The notes under the pieces are model-generated. The model saw nothing but the letters and a program-made list of their open reading frames with translations, was not told where the DNA came from and searched no databases. DNA of 64,000 nt, from assembly GCF_041146345.1 (NCBI RefSeq), contig NW_027191411.1, positions 1-64,000 of the forward strand, written 5' to 3'. Shown one piece after another: positions 2,812-23,869 of the stretch (its first letter is position 1; every line of letters begins with the position of its first letter). The translations under genes were made by a program, and so were the position numbers. This DNA is from Neodothiora populina (lineage: Eukaryota).

Positions 2812-4683
2812 TTATTCTAATCTACGATGAGTAGTAAGGTCCATGTTAGAAGACTTAACACGAGCCGTGCCCTTCAATACCTTCCACAGCACATAGTTAA
2901 AGATGTAGACCACAATACCAATGTACGATGTTATAAATTTCGTGAGGTCGAAATGTGGTATGAATGCAGGGTATCCTATGTTGAGCGGTCAGCATCAACC
3001 GATCGCGATAGACGTCATCACTTGCCGTTGAACACAATAACCAAGACGGTCATAACAAGTGCGAACCAGGCGCCATAAGGTTGCAGAATATCGGTGTAGG
3101 GCATTTCGGTGCGTGAGATACCTTGACACTTCATGCCATGTCGCATGCAGAGGTAGGAACATAAGATGCTGACCCAATTTAGAGTGCCGAAAACAGTCAC
3201 CAGACTGACAAAGTACCCAAACACAGTTGAAGATGACTTGCTAACGTTGAGATAGCCTAGAAGTATAAAGAGAGAACTGAGTATCACGCCATAAAGTGGT
3301 ACCCCGGTACTTGTGGTGCGACTGAATATTCGGGGTGCTTGTCCGTCTTTAGAAAGACCAAACAGAGTGCGGGATGCCACGTAGACATCTGATACATTTA
3401 GCAAAATCACATGTTAGTGAAGGATACATGGGCTACAATACCGGAGTTCGCTGCGCTAAGCACGAAGAACAGGAGTAGAGCGTTGATGATATCCGGCATC
3501 ACGTTGATCTCAGCAAGCTTGATCGCGATCACAAATGGAGAAGCAGCTAGAAGCACAGTAATCAGTAAAGCTAGAGCCTCTATACAAGGCCGTAGAGATG
3601 TGCATACCTGCGCTGGTCTTTGCTTTTGTTGCTCCGATTAGCATTGGGTCGTTGTACGGGACGCACATTCCTAGTAAGAACACAGCGAACATGTAGAAAG
3701 TCAGTATACGAAAAAGAGTTTGCCGCACCGCTCTTGGTACAGTCTTCGCAGGGTTAGGTGCTTCGCCAAAGGCAGCGCCAACAACTTCAGTCCCTGTGTA
3801 GGCAAAGCACGCCTGGACGATGCAAGCCCAGAAACCTAAGAATTTGCCAGTAGGCCCTTCGACCAGGTACTCAGCGAATGCGCCTGGCTCTCTCCAGTAC
3901 CTGAAACCAATTCGATCGTGTTTTGGGGCCCCTCCAAGAGTGATAACTAAACACACTAGTAGCAAAGCTGCCAGCACCAAAACCTTGACAATTGAAAACC
4001 AGAACTCGGCTTCACCGAACCATCGAACATGGAATACCTACAGTCGGATTAGTCGAACGCCGAGTAAACAGCAGTGGCATAGTGGTATTGCGGGGATGAA
4101 CAGATCAGTGTAACACTTACATTCAGAGCTACAATGCAAACGCCAAATATTGTGACCCAAATGGCCACATTGAGATCAGGACGCCAGTACTGAATGATAA
4201 TTCCTGCAGCCGTGAGATTGTTTGGCAGAACAATCACATACTTAAAGAAATAGTTCCAACCAGTAGCAAATCTGTTCGTATGTCAGTAGTAATTTTGGAA
4301 GCAGCACATGGACCATACCCAAAAATCACTCACCCCAAGGCTGGGTCGGCGAACCGAGTAGCGTACCCCGCAAAACCCTTCTTCATAGGCAAGAAAGCCG
4401 CCATCTCGCCCATAGCTGTCATAACAAAGTAGACGACTATGCCAATCGCAATATACGCGACAAGTAGACTACCAGGCCCACCACGAGCAAGGCCAGAGCC
4501 GGAGCCAATGATCAAGCCGGTTCCTATGGCACAAGCAATAGCAAACATGTCTACCTGGCGAGACTTAAGACCTCTCTGAAGATCATTACCAGTGTCCTGG
4601 TTGTCGATGATTTCACCCGTCTCAAGATCATTGTCAACGACGGTAGGTGTAAAGCCTACTTGTGCCTTCGTAGCAATGTCCAT
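2812..4683 (-). CDS. Amino acid permease (YAT/APC family, Dip5-like), multi-exon
   Basis: Exons encode LQRGLKSRQ..AIACAIGTGLIIGSG, GEMAAFLP, RFADPALG, GFRYWREPGAF, FAYTGTEVVG and SRTLFGLSKDGQAP. The last exon GYPAFIPHFD...HRRLE* ends at TAA 2812-2814. Confidence 0.9.
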
Positions 4684-4917
4684 TCTTTGCGATGCGAAAA
4701 AAAAGTATTGCTTGTCGAGTAGAGACTTAAAAAAGGCGAGCGATATAGATGAACTTGAATTGATGGAGGCAGGATAGTAGCATGGGACTCATTCAGGTGA
4801 TTTACTCCAGATTATAAATGAATCGTGGTCAAGCCATGCCTCCCGTAAAACCAATTCAGTCGATGGTCAGAACATTCTGATAAGTTGCCATGCCAAGTTC
4901 AGATGCCAAGTCCCGTG

Positions 4918-4973
4918 CGGAGGTCGAAGTCCGCATAAGAAAGAAGACGCATGCGCGTGGACATTGAACTCCG
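4918..4973. promoter_or_regulatory. Two CGG-N10-CCG-type sites in the permease promoter
   Basis: CGGAGGTCGAAGTCCG at 4918-4933 and TGGACATTGAACTCCG at 4958-4973. TGATAA lies nearby at 4878. Confidence 0.6.
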
Positions 4974-5657
4974 CAGATTGGCAAAGCCAAGAATGACAGG
5001 TATCTCAGAATCCAAAGATACGCAGGCGTTTATCATAACGGTTGTCTTGTGGGTTTGTCATAGGAATCACTTTCTAGCAGGGCCAAAGTTATTTGCGCTA
5101 GGTAAAATTGTTAAGTGTGAAAAGTTTCTGGCCTTCGCGATACCATACTTCTGCTTTGTCCGTGCTAAGTGACATTCTTGAAGATGTTGATAGTGTGCAA
5201 CGATGTGGTGACGACATAATAGCTACATAGTGTTCCATCTAGAAGACTTTGAGTCCTCAACCGCGGCATCACTATGTGACCGACTCGCAACCATCGAACT
5301 CACATTGTTCCATATTACAGCATTACTTCCGAATAAAGCCCCAAGGACTAAATGATTCAGACTGTTCAAGCTACTATTCGAGTCACAGAGGTACTAGGGT
5401 ATTAGTGCTACAATTGCCAAACCCAAACCTGAAGCACTTCAATGCTTCTACAAGCCTCTTACGGGTACAAATAAGATAGCTGCTTTAGATAAGACAACAA
5501 TGGTATATAACATGGTACATCTATATGTAATGTAAGCTCATACTTGTGTCCAGTACAAATAGCCAACGAGACACATATCATAGCGGAGCCAAGGTAGTAC
5601 GAGGCCCTAGATTGTCTAATCTTTACAAGCTTTGTACAGGGTTTATCCTAGGCATAT

Positions 5658-6808
5658 CTATATTTGAAGGTCATCGAACAGGCTGTGAATCGCTGTACCA
5701 TTGAGCCCTGTAGCTAGACCCAGCTGGAGCATGATTCGTGCCTTTTGAGGTGTTAAGTGCGCACTTGGAATTCTCCATGGGTCAGAGTCGGGGTAGGGAA
5801 CAAAGCCATTCATAGCACGTGAAGCAAAGACCATAGGGATCTTGGTGCTATTCCATACGTCTCGTGCAGCGTCCAGGACGTGCTCTGGTAGATCCCCGGC
5901 TCCAGTCCCAGCAAAGACAATTCCTTTAGCTCCAAGGTTCACCGACGCTTGGATTAATCCAGGGTTACTCTCGATGTGGGCATATAGAATGTCGACCATA
6001 GGTAGAGTGGTGAGGTTCAATGGAGCAATATCAAAGAATGGCTTTCCAACTGGTTGGGCAGGCTCGTAGTAGAAGTTGGCTGCTTGATTCAAGAAGAGAC
6101 CAAGATGACCTTGCTCTCGGGCGTAAAACGCATCAGGTACATTTGCGTGATTCTTCGATACATAAAAAGCACTTGTTATGCGGCTTCAAGCTATCAGATC
6201 ATTGAATATTGACTTATTAGGGTTGGGACGTACTCATTCAGCGTTACCAAAGTACCGCGGCCTACTGCTTTGGGGTTTACGGCAAGGCTGACCGCTTGAA
6301 ATAGATTGAGAGGGCCGTCTGCTGACAATGCTGATGCTGGCCTCATTGATCCCACGACTACTACCGTCTTAGCCGACTGGGTAGTAAGATCAAGGAAAAA
6401 TGCTGTCTCCTCCATCGTGTCCGTGCCGTGAGTAATAACAACGCCTTGGGTCAGATCGCTTGCAAGCTCGCTTGTCACGCGCTGATTAAGACGAAGTAGA
6501 ACCGTACTGTTAATTGACTGGCTATCGGTATTGGCAATCGCATATCCTACGAGATTGGCGACCGATATCAATTCTGGAACAGCGTTGACGAGATCCTGGA
6601 ATGTGGCGTTTGGAGTACCATAATTGGTCGTCTGTACGGAAGTCGAACCGGACTCAGCGATCGTGCCGCCAGTGGTAAGGACAGTAACATTGGCCAAGCT
6701 TTGGTTGAAATTCATTGCAGCATCTCGAAACACGATTGGGATGTCCCTTACGGCATGTATAGTGCCAGCAAGGACAAGGATGTTGAAGAAAGATCGAAGT
6801 AAAGGCAT
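5658..6808 (-). CDS. Secreted type II L-asparaginase (2 exons)
   Basis: Signal-peptide-like MPLLRSFFNILVLAGTIHA. Catalytic motifs TTGGTIA and HGTDTMEETAFFL, plus GSMRPASALSADGPLNL. The intron GTACGT...GAAG joins LND|RITSAFYVSK. C-terminal GAKGIVFAGTGAG and LTPQKARIML. Confidence 0.93.
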
Positions 6809-7005
6809 TGAATCTGAAGATGTTTGCACGTAAGATGAAGTGAGATGAGCTATTCGCCATTTGGACGATCCATTCATATAGTGTTGATACGTTTGCACAG
6901 ACCCCATCATAGTCGAGACATCTTGCACCTTACTTCGCTCACAATCTGTGTGACATCGGTGGCTGAACGATGTCCATGATCTATTCGCTTCTGTATCTCC
7001 GCCGA

Positions 7006-7021
7006 CGGACATTGAAATCCG
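7006..7021. promoter_or_regulatory. CGG-N10-CCG site in the asparaginase promoter
   Basis: CGGACATTGAAATCCG about 200 bp upstream of the ATG, with AGATAA at 7039. Confidence 0.6.
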
Positions 7022-7596
7022 TGACAATGACGTCTTCAAGATAACTTTGTCTTCTAGAACTCGGCGCCGATTAAAGTCATGGCAGCCAAGTCTGATCAAG
7101 TTGTTGCCCCGTTTAATCGCTCCTGATCGCTTGAGGCATACTTACTCGTTGATTTCGTCCGTTCTTTGAGATGCGGAGCGCCCACGAGCCAGATAGCACA
7201 TTCGAAGGATGTGGATCACAATGTGAATGACAAGCGCGTCGTGGGATAGTCTTAGAGATCGTTCCCAATTGTATTTTAGTGTAAATACTGTATAAAACTT
7301 GTTGATGAAACTACACCCGGACTGCTTTTATCTTGTAGGCATCTTCTCAAAGGCACAAGTAGAGGAAATCATATAGGTTTGCTGTCCATGAAATACAGAT
7401 CAGCCTTGACATTTCCGGACGGGGCTGTGAATATGGCAAGATATCCCTCTTTTTGACTCGGCTCTGGACGTCGTTGCCTCCGTATCACACCATTCACGTC
7501 ACAATTGAGCCCGGTCGCTTCGACAATCACTATGCTGTTGAGAGATTGAGATCTCGAACACAAATATATGGATCTATTGCTGTGCATGGACGGACA

Positions 7597-9893
7597 TCAA
7601 AACATGCAGTCTTCAAGCGGGTGTGTGAGTGTGCCAAGGGAAAATATGAAACCGGGAAGGTTGAATGACCCGTCGAGGGGATCGCCTGTGAGATCACTAT
7701 AGCCTTCCTCCATCAAGTTGTCGGGAGGTCGGGGGTCGGTATTGGCGTGTAAAGTCGTTCCACCTGTTTCGGCCGAACGTTCCAAGCGAACCTGCGAGAA
7801 GATTAGACACATACACAGAGTTTGATTCCATCCGACATACTTCTTGATGCTGACTGGACCGATTCGGCACTTGTTCTCCCGTTGTAGAGATGTCAAGAGC
7901 TTTTGAAGAGAGCTGATCGTGGACTTGTCTCGCGAACGCCCAAGCTTGACCACACGCTCGAAGAGTCTTCAGCAATACTTGAGAACGGGCGTGGTGGTGC
8001 TCCTGAGACGATTGGAGTTCTGACCGGCTAGCCAATCTTTGGCTGCTATGGATGGCCACTGCAGTAGCATAGATCATGATGACTGGTGGACGAAAGATTC
8101 TCGATGATGACATGATTTGCCTCAGAAGCTGTGCAATGTCTTCGATCAATTCATCACTGGTCTTGTGGAACAATTTCTGCTTATCACAGTCACCGGAACG
8201 ACCTAGTAGTTCTTCGAGGACACATAATCTCAGCGAGAGATAGTACAAACTGAAAGGAACTAAGTCAATAGTTCGAACAATGAGGGACAAGGATTCTTAC
8301 TGCAGAAGGAAGACGTGATTTGATGTTGACGGCGCTTGAGATTTCCATCGATTCCATCTCAAGGTACTGTCAAGGTTATTGTGCCATCTGCAAAGCGATA
8401 AATCAAACCTTTGCAAAGCTGCGACTGTTGTTGTAGAAGACCCGCTCAAACTAGATTGTACAGTGAACACGTGTAATAGTAGTTGATGACATATCTTGCT
8501 CAACCCTCCTAAGCCCTTGAAAAAGGGTATAAGACGTGGAATCTGCTGGTCCTCGGTCTCATCCGGGAGCCATGCCATCAGCGTTACGTTGTCTCTTCGA
8601 TATGTTAGTTGATGGATCCTTTCGACGATAAATACAACTGACGGTAATTGCTCGCTCGGGCTGACTGCAGCGTCGAAATCCTGGAAAAACACAGGTCTTC
8701 CTAGTAGCAATGCGATCATGCTTGCAATCGTCAGCAGTCCGAGTCTGTAGAAAGAGGAATGCAAGATGCTTCACCTGTCAGCAGTATAGCACCCCCAGTA
8801 TATACGACGACGAATCTCCGAGTCGAGCTCCGGAATTGAGCGCCCATCCTTAGAACGCCCTGCTTGGCCATCATACTGGAGTCCGATGTCCTGTAAACTG
8901 CGAAAGGCCATACCTTGCGAAGGTTAGTGTCATAAAAATAAGGCTGGCATGTGTAAGATAACCGACCAGAAAGCAGCCAAGCTTTGGATATGTTTCCCAC
9001 GGCAAGTTCACCAAAGGCAAGGCAGAGAAATGTTTGAACAGTCGTCGAGTTGACCTCGAGTGTCTTCACAGTCGAGATGTTCGCGTATGACTTCTTCATA
9101 AAATATGTCACTCTGTTATGGTTATCGCCCTTATCAGGTATACAGCCTAAAGCACATATAGAGTAGATGAGAGCAAGAGAACAGTAGCGGCCCTGATATT
9201 CGTGGTTGAGGTAGTCGAGCAAGAGAGCTTCTCGATAGAGGAACATGTACTCAGGATATTGCCACCGGAAGAACGATCGCAGAATCTCATCGACATCTGG
9301 TTCTTCTGCATTGATGGTGCAATAAAGAGATGGTGTAGTAGACTGCTGGGTCAACGTTGCACCTCTCTGGTCGCAAACGCTCCCGAAGCGATATATGCTT
9401 GTTGGTCCTTGATACGAAGTACATGTTCGCGACGATGTGTTCAGGCGAACGTTACCCGCGCGTACCTCTCGATGTTCAATCGTAGCATTCGCATCCGGTT
9501 CCAGAGTCCGAGGTTCCTCACACACACTGAGTATACCTAGAGGGGCTGTGTTTTTGTCGGCCAAGCCGCTTGACTGTGCATCACGAAGTGCTTCCTGAAG
9601 AGACGCTATCTGTTGTTCCAGGGAGGTAACGTAATGCTTGGACACTGGTATCTTACGGCCATCTTCTTGCCTATACTCACACTCGTGACCCGCTTTCGTA
9701 CAACTGGCACAAGGAATCGTGCGAGAGCATCTTAGCTGGATTCAGTCAGTCGATACTGCTGCAAATGAGGCACAACCTCAAACCTTGCGTTGCTGGCATC
9801 TCTTGCATCTAGTCTGAGATTAGCTATCGAAGTCTCCGGACAGGAGTGGTCATACGAAATCCTGCTGTGCCTGGAAGGCTCTGCAGAGCTCAT
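7597..9893 (-). CDS. Zn(II)2Cys6 transcription factor with fungal-specific TF (middle homology) domain, multi-exon
   Basis: Spliced N-terminus MSSAEPSRHSRIS|CKRCQQRK|LRCSRTIPCASCTKAGHEC gives all six Cys. Downstream FFRWQYP..FLYREA and LLLGRP motifs. The 3' end at 7597 assumes a final intron. Confidence 0.85.
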
Positions 9894-10099
9894 TCTGCTA
9901 CGAGGTGTGCAGGGTTTGCCCGAGTCAATGGATCTACAGAGTGAGCGGATGGTCTGGGGAAACCTTCCATTGGTCGAGATGTGTGCTTAGTGCCAAGACA
10001 TGTGAAGAGGGACAAGCGGAGTTTGAACTCCGCACCAAAGAAACACTTCACGGCCTGGGAGACCGTCACAATCAGCCAAGCCATTGCAAAGCTTGAGAG

Positions 10100-10285
10100 C
10101 GGACATTGAAGCTCCGAATCTGGACTCTAACCACGCCGAAAAGCATCGGTTTTCATCCTCCGAGTGATAACATTATTAGTCAATGATTTTATTGGATAAT
10201 GCGGTAATGGGATGCACGACGCGCTGATCACATGGATCTATGAACGGAGGGCAGCGATAGTGAGGATGTCGGTCTTCATGCTCCG
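10100..10285. promoter_or_regulatory. Three related CGG...CCG sites in the divergent TF/PLP-enzyme promoter
   Basis: CGGACATTGAAGCTCCG 10100-10116 (N11). 10147-10162 reads CGGAGGATGAAAACCG on the minus strand and 10270-10285 reads CGGAGCATGAAGACCG on the minus strand. TGATAA at 10165 and 10398. Confidence 0.65.
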
Positions 10286-10432
10286 CCCTCAGTCGACAAT
10301 GACACCTGCTTACTCTGGACATCTTGGGTATGGCGTTGAGTATCCAGCAGGATGCAATATAAACATCGAATGCTCCCTCGCTTTGGCCCTTTGTAGATGA
10401 TAATCTGATCACGCTGATCGTCTGATACTACG

Positions 10433-11656
10433 ATGTCCACTCAGACCACTTCCATTACGAGCAAAATTTCTCTAGCCTCAAGCGCATATGATGTAGAAAA
10501 CTATCGCAGCCTTGTCCCTGTCGTGGCAGAAACCGACATTCTCTACTTGAATGCTTCTTACCAGCCACCCATGAACATCAGGGTACGCCGCGCCATTGAT
10601 GGTTATCTTGACGAAGCGCTCCATGAACCTCATCCAAAGCCCATGTGGCAAGCTTCTGGCGAGGAGACGCGTGCCTTGGTTGGCCGCTACATTGGCGCTC
10701 CCCCCGAGTCCATCGCCTTCACTAGTGATACAACAGAAGGACTGAATCTCTTCCAAAGGTCCCTGAATCTTGGCAAAGGCGATAACGTTGTCGTTCTTGA
10801 CACAGAGCATCCGAATCATGCTTACGGCTGGCTGGCATTACAAGAAACTGGTCTGGAGGTCCGCCAAGTACCCACAAACGATCGACTGTACGCTGATGCC
10901 TCGACCTTTGCCCCCTTTGTTGATGAGAATACAAAAGCCATCGGCATTTCGTCAATCATGTTCCATTCTGGCCAAAAGAACAACGTTAAGGATATCTGCG
11001 ACCACTTCAGACCACGTGGTATCCACGTTCTAGCGGACATAACCCAGGAAGTTGGTGTCGGACCCATCAACGTTACGAGGACTGGGGTATCAGCTGCCTG
11101 TTTCAGTTTTCATAAAGCTCTCGGGTGTCCCACCGGTCTCGGAGCATTATATATCAATCCTGTGGTTCTCGAACAAATAAAGCAGACTCCACCGATTGTA
11201 GGGGCGGGTGCAATCTCAAATCTTCGTGCAGATCTTCTCGCCATGTCGGGTCCGTTGAAATGCCACAAGACAACAAAGCGATACGAGCATCTGAATCTAT
11301 CCCTTATCTCTCTCTGCGCTGCAAATGCTGCTCTGAGACTTCTGCTTGATGAGATGACTCCGGAAGGCGTTGAAGCTCATTTACGCTCGCTGGGAAGAGT
11401 ACTACAGGATGAGTGCAAAGCTCTGGGTATCCAAATCATTGGTGAAGAGGACGAAGCGAAGCGTGCTCCTCATCTCTACGTATTGAAGCTTTTAGATCTG
11501 GCGTGGGCCGAACACTTCTCGAGGAACTCGACGTATGTCAGTTGCTACCGTCTTGGTGTAAGAGTTTCTCTTGGATTTTATAATACTGAAGCAGACATAC
11601 GGAAGCTCGGAGTTGTGCTTAGAAAGGGTCTTGAAATGGGCCTTCCGGCCTGTTAG
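10433..11656 (+). CDS. PLP-dependent class-V aminotransferase-fold enzyme (cysteine desulfurase / C-S lyase / CefD epimerase-like), intronless
   Basis: 407-aa ORF with YLNASYQPP, IAFTSDTTEGLN, GDNVVVLDTEHP, ADITQEVG, SFHK (PLP lysine) ALGCPTGLGALY and RVSLGFYNT. Confidence 0.85.
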   Translation: MSTQTTSITSKISLASSAYDVENYRSLVPVVAETDILYLNASYQPPMNIRVRRAIDGYLDEALHEPHPKPMWQASGEETRALVGRYIGAPPESIAFTSDTTEGLNLFQRSLNLGKGDNVVVLDTEHPNHAYGWLALQETGLEVRQVPTNDRLYADASTFAPFVDENTKAIGISSIMFHSGQKNNVKDICDHFRPRGIHVLADITQEVGVGPINVTRTGVSAACFSFHKALGCPTGLGALYINPVVLEQIKQTPPIVGAGAISNLRADLLAMSGPLKCHKTTKRYEHLNLSLISLCAANAALRLLLDEMTPEGVEAHLRSLGRVLQDECKALGIQIIGEEDEAKRAPHLYVLKLLDLAWAEHFSRNSTYVSCYRLGVRVSLGFYNTEADIRKLGVVLRKGLEMGLPAC

Positions 11657-12290
11657 AGTTGGCCAAGTGGTTGGAATTTGAAGACCACGCATAGAATAGT
11701 GTTTCGCAAAAGTAGGCATGGCTGTCCACCTTATATAATTAAAAGCCTTTGAAAAAGCGATTGCGGCAGTAAGCATCTTACTTCCTGGGTGTCTAGTGTT
11801 CAGTGTAATGAAGGCCGCGGACAAAGTGATGTCCCGTCGTACTCCTGCGGCAAGTAAGTCCAGTTTGATGGCAGATCGTCATTCTTGCCCCCTGACCACT
11901 CTCCTCCACTGCCCGGCGTTAGAGTGCCGAGTGACTATTAGTGGCATGGGGACAGTAGTAACAACCCAAATCTAAAGGTTGCGTGACTCGACTATGGGAA
12001 AGAACAGAACAGAACAAGTGAGCGGAACCAAGATTCACAACTAATGCAAACTATAGTCCATGATGGAAGTTGACTTATCGGCTGTCACGTGGCAGATCCG
12101 CTCGAGGTTACGGTTATAGAACTTGCCACCAGGAACGGCTAAGGCTGTAGCTTTTGTAGTGGCAATGGCAATGTGACTGAGGAAAAAGATAAAGAGATGG
12201 GAGAAAGGGCTGTAGCTAGCTAGATGAGCTTTTAAAAAGATTAAGAAAGAGATTATCAGAGCCGAGGGGCGACTGAATCCAAATGGCATC

Positions 12291-22580: not shown

Positions 22581-22972
22581 CAACAGGGCTCGGTAGACAT
22601 TTTGTTCTGTCCATCTACGCGGTCGTTACAGTAGAGATCGGGAACACGATCAGATCGAGATCGATCAGGTAGTGTGATGGCAAGGACCGAGACTCTCGTG
22701 TGATGCGACCTGGCCATACAGTAGCATGCATGGCAAGAGATGTAATGGTGGAGTCGAGAAGAAAGGGAGAGCGCCTGCCAAGACACGACCCGGCGGCGTC
22801 ACTTCCAAATGCGACACATGAATTGTCTTCCATCTTTCCTTCTTGATTTACTTCTCTCTATACATTCTGTCAAGCGTCGCTCACTGCCGTCGTGAACTCA
22901 TCCAGATACACCAGTCATGTAATTCATCTGCCCGTGGATTCAATACGCAATGAACAACAGCCTCCAGTCGCC

Positions 22973-23869
22973 ATGGACGGTGCCTTGCGGTTGATCGCTC
23001 CACTGCCGCCGTTGCAGCCAAGGCAGTCGCAGTCGTCGCCGCCTCAGGACACTCACGACAGTTCCCACCCCAACGCAGCGCCCTTTCACACTCCCGTCTC
23101 CTCTGCTTCCACTTCCACTTCTGCCTGCTCCTCGCCTCCACACGACGTCCAGAGGTCACTGACGAGTCCCTTCTCCTTCCGGAGCTCCAGCTCCCGCTGG
23201 CTCGCCATCACCCACCGCGTCCCCTCGTCGCACTCGGCCTTTCTCTACGGCGTCAAGTCCACCAAGATCTATTGCCGCCCCACTTGCACTGCGCGTGTCG
23301 CCAGGAGGGCCAATGTGGTGTACTACGGTTCACAGGACGAAGCGCGTCGCGACGGGTTCAGACCGTGCAAGAGATGCAGGCCCGACGATGAGACGTTTGT
23401 CGGGGACCGCGAGGAGATGGTGGAGAAAGTCCTGACGCTTCTGCGGACACAAGAGATGGCCTCGACGGGCAAGGGAGGCCTGAAAGAGCTGGCCAAGCAG
23501 GCGGGTGTCACGCCGAGCTATCTCTGCCGCGTCTTCAAGTCCGTCATGGGCACCACGCTGGGCGCGTACATCAGTACATTCGAGTGTCAGGCCAAGCGGG
23601 ACGAGACACAGATGGCTCTTGACTCGTATAGCGAGAGCAGCAAGAGTCGCTGCGGCAGTGCATCGATTGGTGCGGGCGAATCAACAAGCCCCCTGACGGC
23701 GGTCGCTTCGGTGCAGAACCCATTCTCGCCAAATACAGACGATTTTGATCACTGGCCGGTAGATGGACAGTCGGCGCAGTTTCAGGACATGCTCGACCTG
23801 GACTTGGACGTGGATTTCGAGGAGTGGATATGGACCGCAGATTTCCCGCCTCCGAGCAATTGCAAATGA
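22973..23869 (+). CDS. Ada-like protein: Ada Zn-binding (methylphosphotriester repair) domain plus AraC-type HTH, intronless
   Basis: GVKSTKIYCRPTCTARVARRANVVYY...GFRPCKRCRP keeps all four Ada Cys, followed by LKELAKQAGVTPSYLCRVFKSVMGTT and an acidic C-terminus. The first ATG is at 22973. Confidence 0.88.
   Translation: MDGALRLIAPLPPLQPRQSQSSPPQDTHDSSHPNAAPFHTPVSSASTSTSACSSPPHDVQRSLTSPFSFRSSSSRWLAITHRVPSSHSAFLYGVKSTKIYCRPTCTARVARRANVVYYGSQDEARRDGFRPCKRCRPDDETFVGDREEMVEKVLTLLRTQEMASTGKGGLKELAKQAGVTPSYLCRVFKSVMGTTLGAYISTFECQAKRDETQMALDSYSESSKSRCGSASIGAGESTSPLTAVASVQNPFSPNTDDFDHWPVDGQSAQFQDMLDLDLDVDFEEWIWTADFPPPSNCK

Follow-up and report, generated by a model that had tools for sequence, protein, structure and literature searches.

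Does an amino-acid permease, an asparaginase, a transcription regulator and an enzyme dependent on pyridoxal phosphate (PLP), encoded side by side in a fungal genome, make up a dedicated pathway or a chance assemblage? The question is raised by a stretch of 64,000 nucleotides from Neodothiora populina (positions 1 to 64,000 of the forward strand of contig NW_027191411.1, NCBI RefSeq assembly GCF_041146345.1; this entire stretch is hereafter called the window), in which positions 2812..11656 hold four adjoining intact genes, recognised by Pfam matches and by exon models built from coordinates:

2812..4683, minus strand: yeast-type amino-acid permease (AA_permease) gene, 6 exons, 520 amino acids (exon model and Pfam)
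5658..6808, minus strand: type II L-asparaginase gene, 2 exons, 366 amino acids, intron 6233-6184
7597..9893, minus strand: Zn2Cys6/Fungal_trans regulator gene, 8 exons, 648 amino acids
10433..11656, plus strand: class-V-fold PLP enzyme gene, single exon, 407 amino acids

The regulator and PLP enzyme genes are divergent, with 539 bp between them. An earlier reading made from the letters of the window (the sequence-only reading) had proposed four adjacent intact genes with the regulator and the PLP enzyme transcribed divergently. The exon models, the Pfam matches and the splice skips in assembled sequencing runs confirm the four adjacent intact genes, and the divergent layout stands as well.

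It is reasonably probable that the locus is a catabolic regulon in which a conserved regulator-PLP enzyme pair is joined by an asparaginase and a permease. The design is a familiar one, that of a fungal catabolic cluster with its own regulator, and the four genes are probably co-regulated; the PLP enzyme belongs to a family that is widely mis-annotated.

A promoter element shared by the four genes

The regions upstream of the permease (4684-5657), of the asparaginase (6809-7596) and of the divergent pair (9894-10432), 2.3 kb in all, were compared in a k-mer search without a prior pattern. An exact 10-mer, GGACATTGAA, occurs once in each promoter (at 4959, 7007 and 10101) and nowhere else in the 64 kb, in agreement with the claim of the sequence-only reading that one motif is common to all three. 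The sharing is beyond chance: random triples of regions of equal sizes from the rest of the window had a common 10-mer in 8 of 3000 cases, and in a shuffle control a 10-mer common to all three regions arose in about 1 of 200. The 10-mer is embedded in inverted CGG repeats (palindromes of the CGG-N10-CCG type). The pattern GGA-N4-GAA-N2-CCG has six matches in the window, all within the three promoters, compared with 0.36 expected, but because this pattern was derived from the sites themselves, the count measures exclusivity and not independent significance. The general form CGG-N10-CCG is found 16 times in the window versus 8.65 expected, and five of the 16 lie within the 2.3 kb of promoters. 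As a class, the promoter sites constitute a CGGAnnTnGAAnTCCG element (at 4918, 4958, 7006, 10017 and 10100); the individual sites, with two half-conserved ones, are the following:

4918, permease promoter: CGGAGGTCGAAGTCCG, a related form, 235 bp upstream of the ATG
4958, permease promoter: tGGACATTGAACTCCG, holding the 10-mer, 276 bp upstream of the ATG (the two permease-promoter copies together span 4918..4973)
7006..7021, asparaginase promoter: CGGACATTGAAATCCG, 199 bp upstream of the ATG
10017, regulator/PLP promoter (9894..10432): CGGAGTTTGAACTCCG, a related form
10100, regulator/PLP promoter: CGGACATTGAAGCTCCG, holding the 10-mer, with N11 spacing, one base longer
10147 and 10270, regulator/PLP promoter, reverse strand: GGAGGATGAAAACCG and GGAGCATGAAGACCG, half-conserved sites

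The elements of the divergent promoter lie 124-377 bp from the start codon of the regulator. The transcript contig of the regulator (from run X2, described below) ends at 7252, and the asparaginase-promoter element is outside it. Zn2Cys6 dimers classically recognise inverted CGG triplets at fixed spacing, so that the adjacent regulator is the obvious candidate binder; it is predicted to bind these elements and also to regulate itself. With a CGG-N10-CCG-type element found, within the window, in the three promoters only, the four genes probably form one regulon. GATA sites, which had also been noted in these promoters, are present at the level expected by chance (11 HGATAR sites compared with about 8.3 expected from shuffles), and their enrichment was rejected.

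Conservation of the regulator-PLP pair in other fungi

The regulator and PLP enzyme genes carry consecutive locus tags or accessions in 11 other fungal genomes, namely, Pestalotiopsis fici (05826/05827), three Ilyonectria, Fusarium nematophilum (010316/010317) and six Fusarium of the ambrosia clade (F. ambrosium, F. euwallaceae, F. floridanum, F. oligoseptatum, F. kuroshium and F. sp. AF-6). Close linkage is found in three more: the locus tags differ by two in F. duplospermum; in Neonectria ditissima, both genes are on one 215-kb contig with accessions nine apart; and in Colletotrichum nymphaeae, a model of 978 amino acids (CNYM01_05773) consists of the PLP enzyme (30-422) followed by the regulator (426-978), the latter starting just past its zinc cluster. 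In CNYM01_05773, the models of two neighbouring genes on one strand have most likely been merged, which implies an orientation of the pair unlike the divergent one seen in the window. Both genes are also present together on Logan contigs of 3.4, 22 and 50 kb.

The search for the regulator, with its largest exon as the query, found only eight proteins. Six of the eight matches are linked to the PLP gene; the F. albosuccineum regulator is on a different small contig, and the regulator of the F. sambucinum group was left out of the linkage look-up. The window regulator aligns over its full length with eight relatives, of which seven are proteins and the eighth is the C-terminal part of the C. nymphaeae merger; identity is 30-36%, and the zinc cluster is near-identical. 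Tag adjacency together with this full-length alignment identifies the pair as a conserved unit, present in at least four orders of Sordariomycetes and in this Dothideomycete.

The asparaginase does not follow the pair. It is unlinked to the regulator-PLP pair in all three genomes where this could be checked: in F. nematophilum, the asparaginase (ACJ41O_005695) and the PLP gene (010317) are on separate contigs, of 7.6 and 5.8 Mb, respectively, in F. oligoseptatum, the respective tags are CEP52_012628 and CEP52_015621, and in A. pullulans, the two genes are on different contigs; the asparaginases so placed are the best-listed homologues from a search limited to proteins of at least 336 amino acids, which excludes split gene calls, and may be paralogues. 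No contig was common to the asparaginase and the PLP enzyme matches, a weak negative given the same length limit and the exclusion of split Logan calls. Thus, of the co-localised four-gene cluster that had been proposed, the regulator-PLP pair is borne out by 11 genomes and three cases of close linkage, and the asparaginase, unlinked in three of three, is not. The four-gene arrangement lacks conservation where checkable, and the asparaginase evidence, as far as it goes, speaks against a conserved cluster.

Bacterial relatives and their gene neighbourhoods

Homologues of the PLP enzyme are encoded in 14 bacterial loci: 13 plasmid records, retrieved at E <= 1e-40 in a translated search with the window protein, and one metagenome contig (L001). 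The plasmid hosts are Rhizobium, Mesorhizobium, Agrobacterium, Caballeronia, Paraburkholderia, Paracoccus and Methylobacterium. The metagenome scan, run with the PLP enzyme alignment, gave 35 pattern matches, which yielded this one bacterial relative and no fungal contigs; two 40-residue matches in metagenome-assembled genomes of Bacilli (E 4e-4 and 7e-4, from 23 pattern matches) were judged spurious. Identity to the window protein is 32.5-37.7% for the 14 homologues, which have its short loop (see below), and the 13 from plasmids are about 50% identical to the L001 protein. The genes found in these loci are:

Adjacent regulator: 14 of 14 loci (IclR 11, LysR 2, GntR 1)
Parts of an amino-acid ATP-binding cassette (ABC) transporter: 13 of 14
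Aspartate ammonia-lyase: 8 of 14, directly downstream of the PLP gene in 7
Glutathione-dependent formaldehyde genes: 6 of 14
Type II asparagine-amide hydrolase (PF00710 and PF17763): 5 of 14, TIGR00520 343 bits versus a cut-off of 314
GltP/DctA-type dicarboxylate/amino-acid symporter: 1 of 14
Aspartoacylase-family protein: 1 of 14

In L001 (38% identity), the PLP gene shares an operon with a GntR regulator gene, four polar-amino-acid ABC genes and an aspartate ammonia-lyase gene. With 691-721 bits, the bacterial lyases exceed the cut-off of the aspartase subfamily model (510), and the Rhizobium asparaginase has no signal-peptide-like N-terminus. These neighbourhoods are regarded as an independent tie between the PLP enzyme family and asparagine/aspartate catabolism and as the strongest functional clue. 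The idea of the sequence-only reading that the adjacency of the genes in the window is meaningful gains support from the appearance of the family next to a regulator, an amino-acid importer and asparagine/aspartate enzymes in two domains of life.

The accessory genes vary. In L006, L009, L011, L013, L014 and L016, genes for class III alcohol dehydrogenase and Gfa, with FghA added in L011, come after the PLP and aspartase genes, and in L012 a sarcosine-oxidase operon takes the place of the formaldehyde genes. In L011, a plasmid of Agrobacterium leguminum, two chemoreceptor genes also separate the PLP gene from that of the IclR regulator. The formaldehyde and sarcosine-oxidase genes and the chemoreceptors of L011 hint that the substrate of the PLP enzyme may yield a one-carbon unit and serve as a chemoattractant. 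In L005 and L015 (Paraburkholderia and Caballeronia plasmids), the PLP gene is accompanied by a LysR regulator and by a divergent operon that encodes a 3-hydroxyisobutyrate-dehydrogenase-like protein, an aldehyde dehydrogenase, a transporter of the major facilitator superfamily (MFS) and D-glutamate-cyclase-like proteins, an accessory set unlike that of the Rhizobiales loci.

A SufS-like PLP enzyme without the desulfurase loop

The PLP enzyme belongs to Aminotran_5 (PF00266, E 3.3e-36). The sequence-only reading had called it an orphan, which is wrong: 296 proteins matched among 8000 scored candidates, those listed being 51-73% identical, and the relatives with source-given names are all fungal, including Aureobasidium, Capronia, Penicillium, Aspergillus, Colletotrichum and Fusarium. 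The nearest solved structures are cysteine desulfurases of the SufS/CsdB type (E 1e-16 by sequence). The predicted structure (AlphaFold, AF2; predicted local distance difference test score 88.4) matches SufS in Foldseek with a template modelling (TM) score of 0.80 at about 21% identity, and an Atlas look-up returned generic bacterial class-V clusters only, the best structural row having a TM score of 0.91. K228 (the PLP lysine, in HK), D202-x-x-Q205, H126 and R377 are invariant in nine fungal and 11 bacterial sequences; by comparison with SufS, their roles are presumably those of the PLP lysine, the PLP-binding Asp-x-x-Gln, the stacking histidine and the carboxylate-binding arginine, respectively.

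What sets the family apart is a missing segment. In the profile-to-structure alignment, the desulfurase GHHCA loop aligns to a gap of nine residues in the family profile. The sole cysteine near the loop is not conserved: its position is occupied by C, H, P, Q, A, S or Y in 25 fungal sequences, and the cysteine is absent from all 11 aligned bacterial homologues. None of the 16 NCBIfam matches of the enzyme reaches its cut-off (sufS 102.4 versus 475.1, CsdA 62 versus 607, EgtE 40 versus 400). Judging by these alignments, the enzyme has a SufS-like fold and is not a cysteine desulfurase, given that the loop with the catalytic cysteine is lacking; with the loop lost and the cut-offs missed, the labels 'cysteine desulfurase' and 'selenocysteine lyase' are not to be trusted. 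The cystine lyase C-DES matches the family over part of the length (E 3e-21). Among other identities that were considered, EgtE, PvdN, kynureninase and PhnW were rejected on NCBIfam scores far under the cut-offs, and canavanine gamma-lyase was rejected as a member of another PLP class, being annotated as a class I/II, methionine-gamma-lyase-like enzyme (PMC9533460).

The permease, the asparaginase and the regulator

Pfam was run on 11 open-frame pieces of the four genes. Three exon pieces of the permease match AA_permease (E 2.3e-39, 2.7e-26 and 2.5e-18). Of 10 clusters of its best full-length relatives that were looked up, one carries the source-given name 'dicarboxylic amino acid permease' and nine have generic names or none; the Atlas names are generic only.

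The asparaginase has both the N-terminal and the C-terminal Pfam domain (PF00710, E 8.7e-44, and PF17763, E 3.1e-23). Its exon 1 alone scores 209 bits with the type II model TIGR00520 compared with 86 bits for type I, the whole-protein cut-off being inapplicable to a single exon. In an alignment with nine fungal asparaginases and one from Rhizobium, the TGGTIA and HGTDT motifs, which we take to be the catalytic threonine motifs, are intact. The protein is collinear with fungal L-asparaginases of 357-380 amino acids and 45-59% identical over the full length to nine of these. Its first 20 residues form a hydrophobic stretch (maximum 11-residue Kyte-Doolittle mean 2.2), with similar leaders in the fungal homologues, and from this signal-peptide-like leader the enzyme is likely to be secreted. 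The family is very large, with 7677 proteins at E <= 1e-3 among 8000 candidates.

The spliced model of the regulator contains a complete C-x2-C-x6-C-x5-C-x2-C-x6-C motif and a Fungal_trans domain (PF04082, E 4e-11). Exon 3 alone lacks the first two cysteines, which are encoded in exon 2, and for this reason gives 20.6 bits with PF00172, just below the cut-off of 21. Two C-terminal regulator exons, among the 11 pieces submitted, had no Pfam match.

A proposed catabolic regulon and its alternatives

How might the four proteins work together? The core of the proposed unit would be a pathway-specific Zn2Cys6 activator and a cytosolic, cysteine-less SufS-like PLP enzyme. Once activated by an inducer, the regulator would bind as a dimer to CGGA-N2-T-N-GAA-N-TCCG (CGG-N10-CCG type) and turn on its own gene and those of the PLP enzyme, the asparaginase and the permease; the presence of the element in the permease, asparaginase and divergent regulator/PLP promoters would ensure that all four are switched on together. 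The asparaginase would deamidate an asparagine-type amide outside the cell to ammonium and the corresponding acid, the permease would take up the amino acid, and the PLP enzyme would carry out the one step that is absent from ordinary metabolism, on an amino acid that belongs to the aspartate family or is beta-substituted. We infer the binding by the regulator, the co-induction, the secretion of the asparaginase, the order of the steps and the substrate.

The bacterial loci help to narrow down the PLP step. Because the minimal bacterial unit comprises a regulator, a transporter and the PLP enzyme, one PLP step may be enough to feed the substrate into central metabolism, and the frequent presence of aspartase suggests that aspartate is a product or a co-substrate of this step. 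Assignment of the reaction is tentative throughout: an aminotransferase using the oxaloacetate/aspartate pair and an elimination of the beta-lyase or desulfinase type each have a modest chance, a racemase or epimerase a slightly smaller one and a reaction other than these a slightly greater one. CefD is a class-V epimerase and as such a precedent for racemisation of D-aspartate; because carriers of the GltP/DctA type also take up D-aspartate, the locus with the symporter would fit this reaction. D-asparagine/D-aspartate is only one candidate substrate among several. A broader proposition, which we consider doubtful, is that the cysteine-less SufS-like family represents a new PLP activity in fungi and plant-associated bacteria, controlled in fungi by a dedicated Zn2Cys6 regulator acting on a CGG-N10-CCG element, that makes a non-canonical amino acid of the aspartate family usable, for example, by racemising D-aspartate derived from D-asparagine or by cleaving an asparagine/aspartate derivative of plants or bacteria to aspartate and a one-carbon unit. 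If true, this would be an undescribed catabolic pathway in two domains of life.

Several observations weigh against the regulon. The motif patterns were derived from the very sites that they count. For the permease, Dip5-like is a candidate subfamily suggested by one source-given name among 10 clusters, and the transporter-rich window makes a chance permease next to the cluster likelier. The bacterial lyases are under the equivalog cut-off (604-653 bits versus 681), and the identity of 32-38% does not guarantee that the bacterial and the fungal enzymes catalyse the same reaction. The five asparaginase loci, on Rhizobium and Mesorhizobium plasmids, share one block arrangement and so are not five independent events. 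Added to these is the unlinked asparaginase in the three fungal genomes. From the catabolic cluster of the sequence-only reading, there remain a putative regulon, delineated by the shared element, and the link of the PLP family to asparagine and aspartate, provided by the bacterial loci; conservation of the four genes as a set, where it could be checked, does not remain.

It is possible, although we consider it unlikely, that the functional unit is limited to the regulator and the PLP enzyme, with the asparaginase and the permease as ordinary genes of nitrogen scavenging that are neighbours by chance and the 10-mer a coincidence or the site of another factor. This explanation is favoured by the lack of linkage between asparaginase and the pair in three of the three testable genomes, by the typical membership of the asparaginase in a very large fungal family (7677 proteins among 8000 candidates) and by the transporter-rich surroundings. 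It has to contend, however, with the rarity of a common 10-mer in random triples (8 of 3000), with the confinement of a palindromic element of the Zn2Cys6 type to these very promoters and with the co-occurrence of the PLP enzyme and asparaginase families in the Rhizobiales plasmid loci. A different view of the PLP enzyme itself, quite unlikely in our estimate, makes it a C-S or C-X beta-lyase for a beta-substituted alanine, the link to asparaginase being secondary; candidate substrates of plant or microbial origin are cystine, djenkolate, S-alkyl-cysteines and cysteine sulfinate. The cysteine-less SufS-like architecture does resemble that of C-DES (the partial match with E 3e-21), the hosts are plant-associated, and the formaldehyde genes found after those for the PLP enzyme and aspartase in 6 of the 14 loci would fit a substrate that releases a one-carbon unit, as djenkolate does. 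Nevertheless, a beta-lyase leaves unexplained the asparaginase and the aspartate ammonia-lyase directly downstream of the PLP gene in 7 of the 14 loci, and genes for handling of sulfite or sulfide were not seen in the stretches read.

That the enzyme is, after all, a cysteine desulfurase or selenocysteine lyase of sulfur or Fe-S metabolism, unrelated to asparagine, is very improbable. The best solved relatives are indeed SufS and CsdB (E 1e-16; Foldseek TM 0.80), and several sources label the homologues 'cysteine desulfurase' or 'selenocysteine lyase', but the catalytic cysteine loop is deleted, the nearby cysteine is replaced by H, P, Q, A, S or Y in other members, the NCBIfam sufS score is 102 bits against a cut-off of 475, and the bacterial homologues reside in amino-acid uptake/aspartase operons rather than in suf or isc operons.

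Comparison with known systems

Catabolic clusters that include a zinc-cluster regulator of their own are familiar from fungi, examples being the proline (prn) cluster of Aspergillus nidulans and qut, and the site of yeast Put3 is CGG-N10-CCG. The regulon proposed here resembles prn/Put3 in having a permease, catabolic enzymes and a zinc-cluster regulator side by side, a divergent promoter and CGG inverted repeats with a spacing of 10. It differs in that it has a secreted-type asparaginase and a cysteine-less SufS-like PLP enzyme and in that, across fungi, only the regulator-PLP core is conserved. The PLP enzyme shares the fold, the PLP lysine, Asp-x-x-Gln, the histidine and the arginine with the group II desulfurases SufS/CsdA and with C-DES; unlike SufS/CsdA, it lacks the loop with the persulfide cysteine, its context is amino-acid catabolism, and there is no gene for a sulfur-acceptor partner near it. 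The bacterial plasmid loci, with IclR, class-V PLP, ABC and aspartase genes, have in common with the fungal locus the PLP family, a regulator, an amino-acid transporter and, in some cases, a type II asparaginase, but these are prokaryotic operons, and the fungal locus has neither the aspartase nor the formaldehyde-detoxification genes.

Two bacterial systems offer further parallels. The fra locus of Salmonella, which serves utilisation of fructose-asparagine, encodes FraE, an asparaginase homologue located in the periplasm, along with a regulator and a dedicated transporter (PMC4941530, PMC4072780). The logic of deamidating outside and importing the acid, proposed for the fungal locus in the sequence-only reading, is similar; unlike this bacterial locus as described, the fungal one includes a PLP enzyme and has a regulator of another type (PMC4941530). 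The families of the fra kinase (FraD) and deglycase (FraB) are represented neither in the four genes nor in open reading frames of at least 110 amino acids up to 34 kb. In the canavanine locus of Pseudomonas and Rhizobiales, an ABC amino-acid importer and a regulator are combined with two lyases, one a specialised PLP enzyme and the other an ammonium-aspartate lyase, and a plant non-protein amino acid is thereby funnelled via aspartate to fumarate (PMC9533460). The bacterial loci of the PLP enzyme homologues share this design, the difference being that canavanine gamma-lyase is a class I/II, methionine-gamma-lyase-like enzyme and that the canavanine loci as described are without asparaginase (PMC9533460).

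Locus-tag and concept searches of open-access full text found no paper on this PLP family or on the cluster. The family is spread over many plant-associated and saprotrophic Pezizomycotina and over rhizobial and agrobacterial plasmids and is routinely mislabelled. The fungal locus supplies a candidate regulator, a candidate binding site and candidate partner enzymes, and the bacterial loci are tractable operons with aspartase and asparaginase; in combination, they make the function of the PLP enzyme directly testable. If the substrate turns out to be a D-amino acid or a non-protein amino acid of plants, the locus would add a route of nutrient acquisition that matters in soil and on plants, and a widespread annotation error would be corrected as well.

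Gene models, splicing and the surrounding window

The window is fungal, as indicated by short GT-AG introns and by the nearest relatives of the PLP enzyme, which are in Dothideales (Delphinella and Aureobasidium, 67-73% identity). In addition to the asparaginase intron given above, the models include the following introns:

4333-4272, 4120-4038, 3607-3547, 3441-3389 and 3025-2976, minus strand: permease introns, the last of the GC-AG type
9855-9809, 9783-9736, 8966-8914, 8774-8721, 8642-8595, 8300-8250 and 7840-7792, minus strand: regulator introns

Contigs of run X2 skip 10 intron-sized segments that X1, an intron-containing DNA run of the same sample, retains, from which we infer that the X2 contigs are transcript-derived (the record label reads 'DNA?'). 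Nine of the 10 skips equal introns predicted from the sequence; the tenth (8642-8595) had not been predicted and was added to the model, which brought the regulator to 8 exons and 648 amino acids. The skips account for four of the five permease introns, the single asparaginase intron and five of the seven regulator introns. The first permease intron and the first two regulator introns were placed from the sequence, X2 having no cover there or, at the second regulator intron, a contig end; X2 cover is also missing over 9996-11800, which includes the PLP gene, and over 4220-5435, and run X3 consists of six short fragments.

The permease intron 3025-2976 (minus strand) has a GC donor (GCAAGT...TAG), and because its skip is present in an X2 contig, it is a non-canonical intron in actual use. 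At 4697, 14 bp before the permease ATG, the X1 contig is one base shorter in a run of eight T (minus strand), a homopolymer length difference that falls outside the coding sequence. Within exon 3 of the regulator (9565-9651), the X1 assembly splits into six contigs of 32-58 bases with depths of 5-28 compared with about 39, two of them with a one-base gap; there is no homopolymer in this segment, and the break may reflect a minor variant or an assembly bubble.

Farther along the window, transporters are unusually frequent: the region 12291-34015 encompasses five or more genes for MFS or sugar transporters and, near 33-34 kb, another amino-acid permease, together with aldo/keto reductases, a zinc alcohol dehydrogenase and a glyoxalase-fold gene. 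An Ada-type Zn-binding/AraC-like gene is located at 22847-23866. Altogether, 12291-34015 looks like an accessory nutrient-uptake region.

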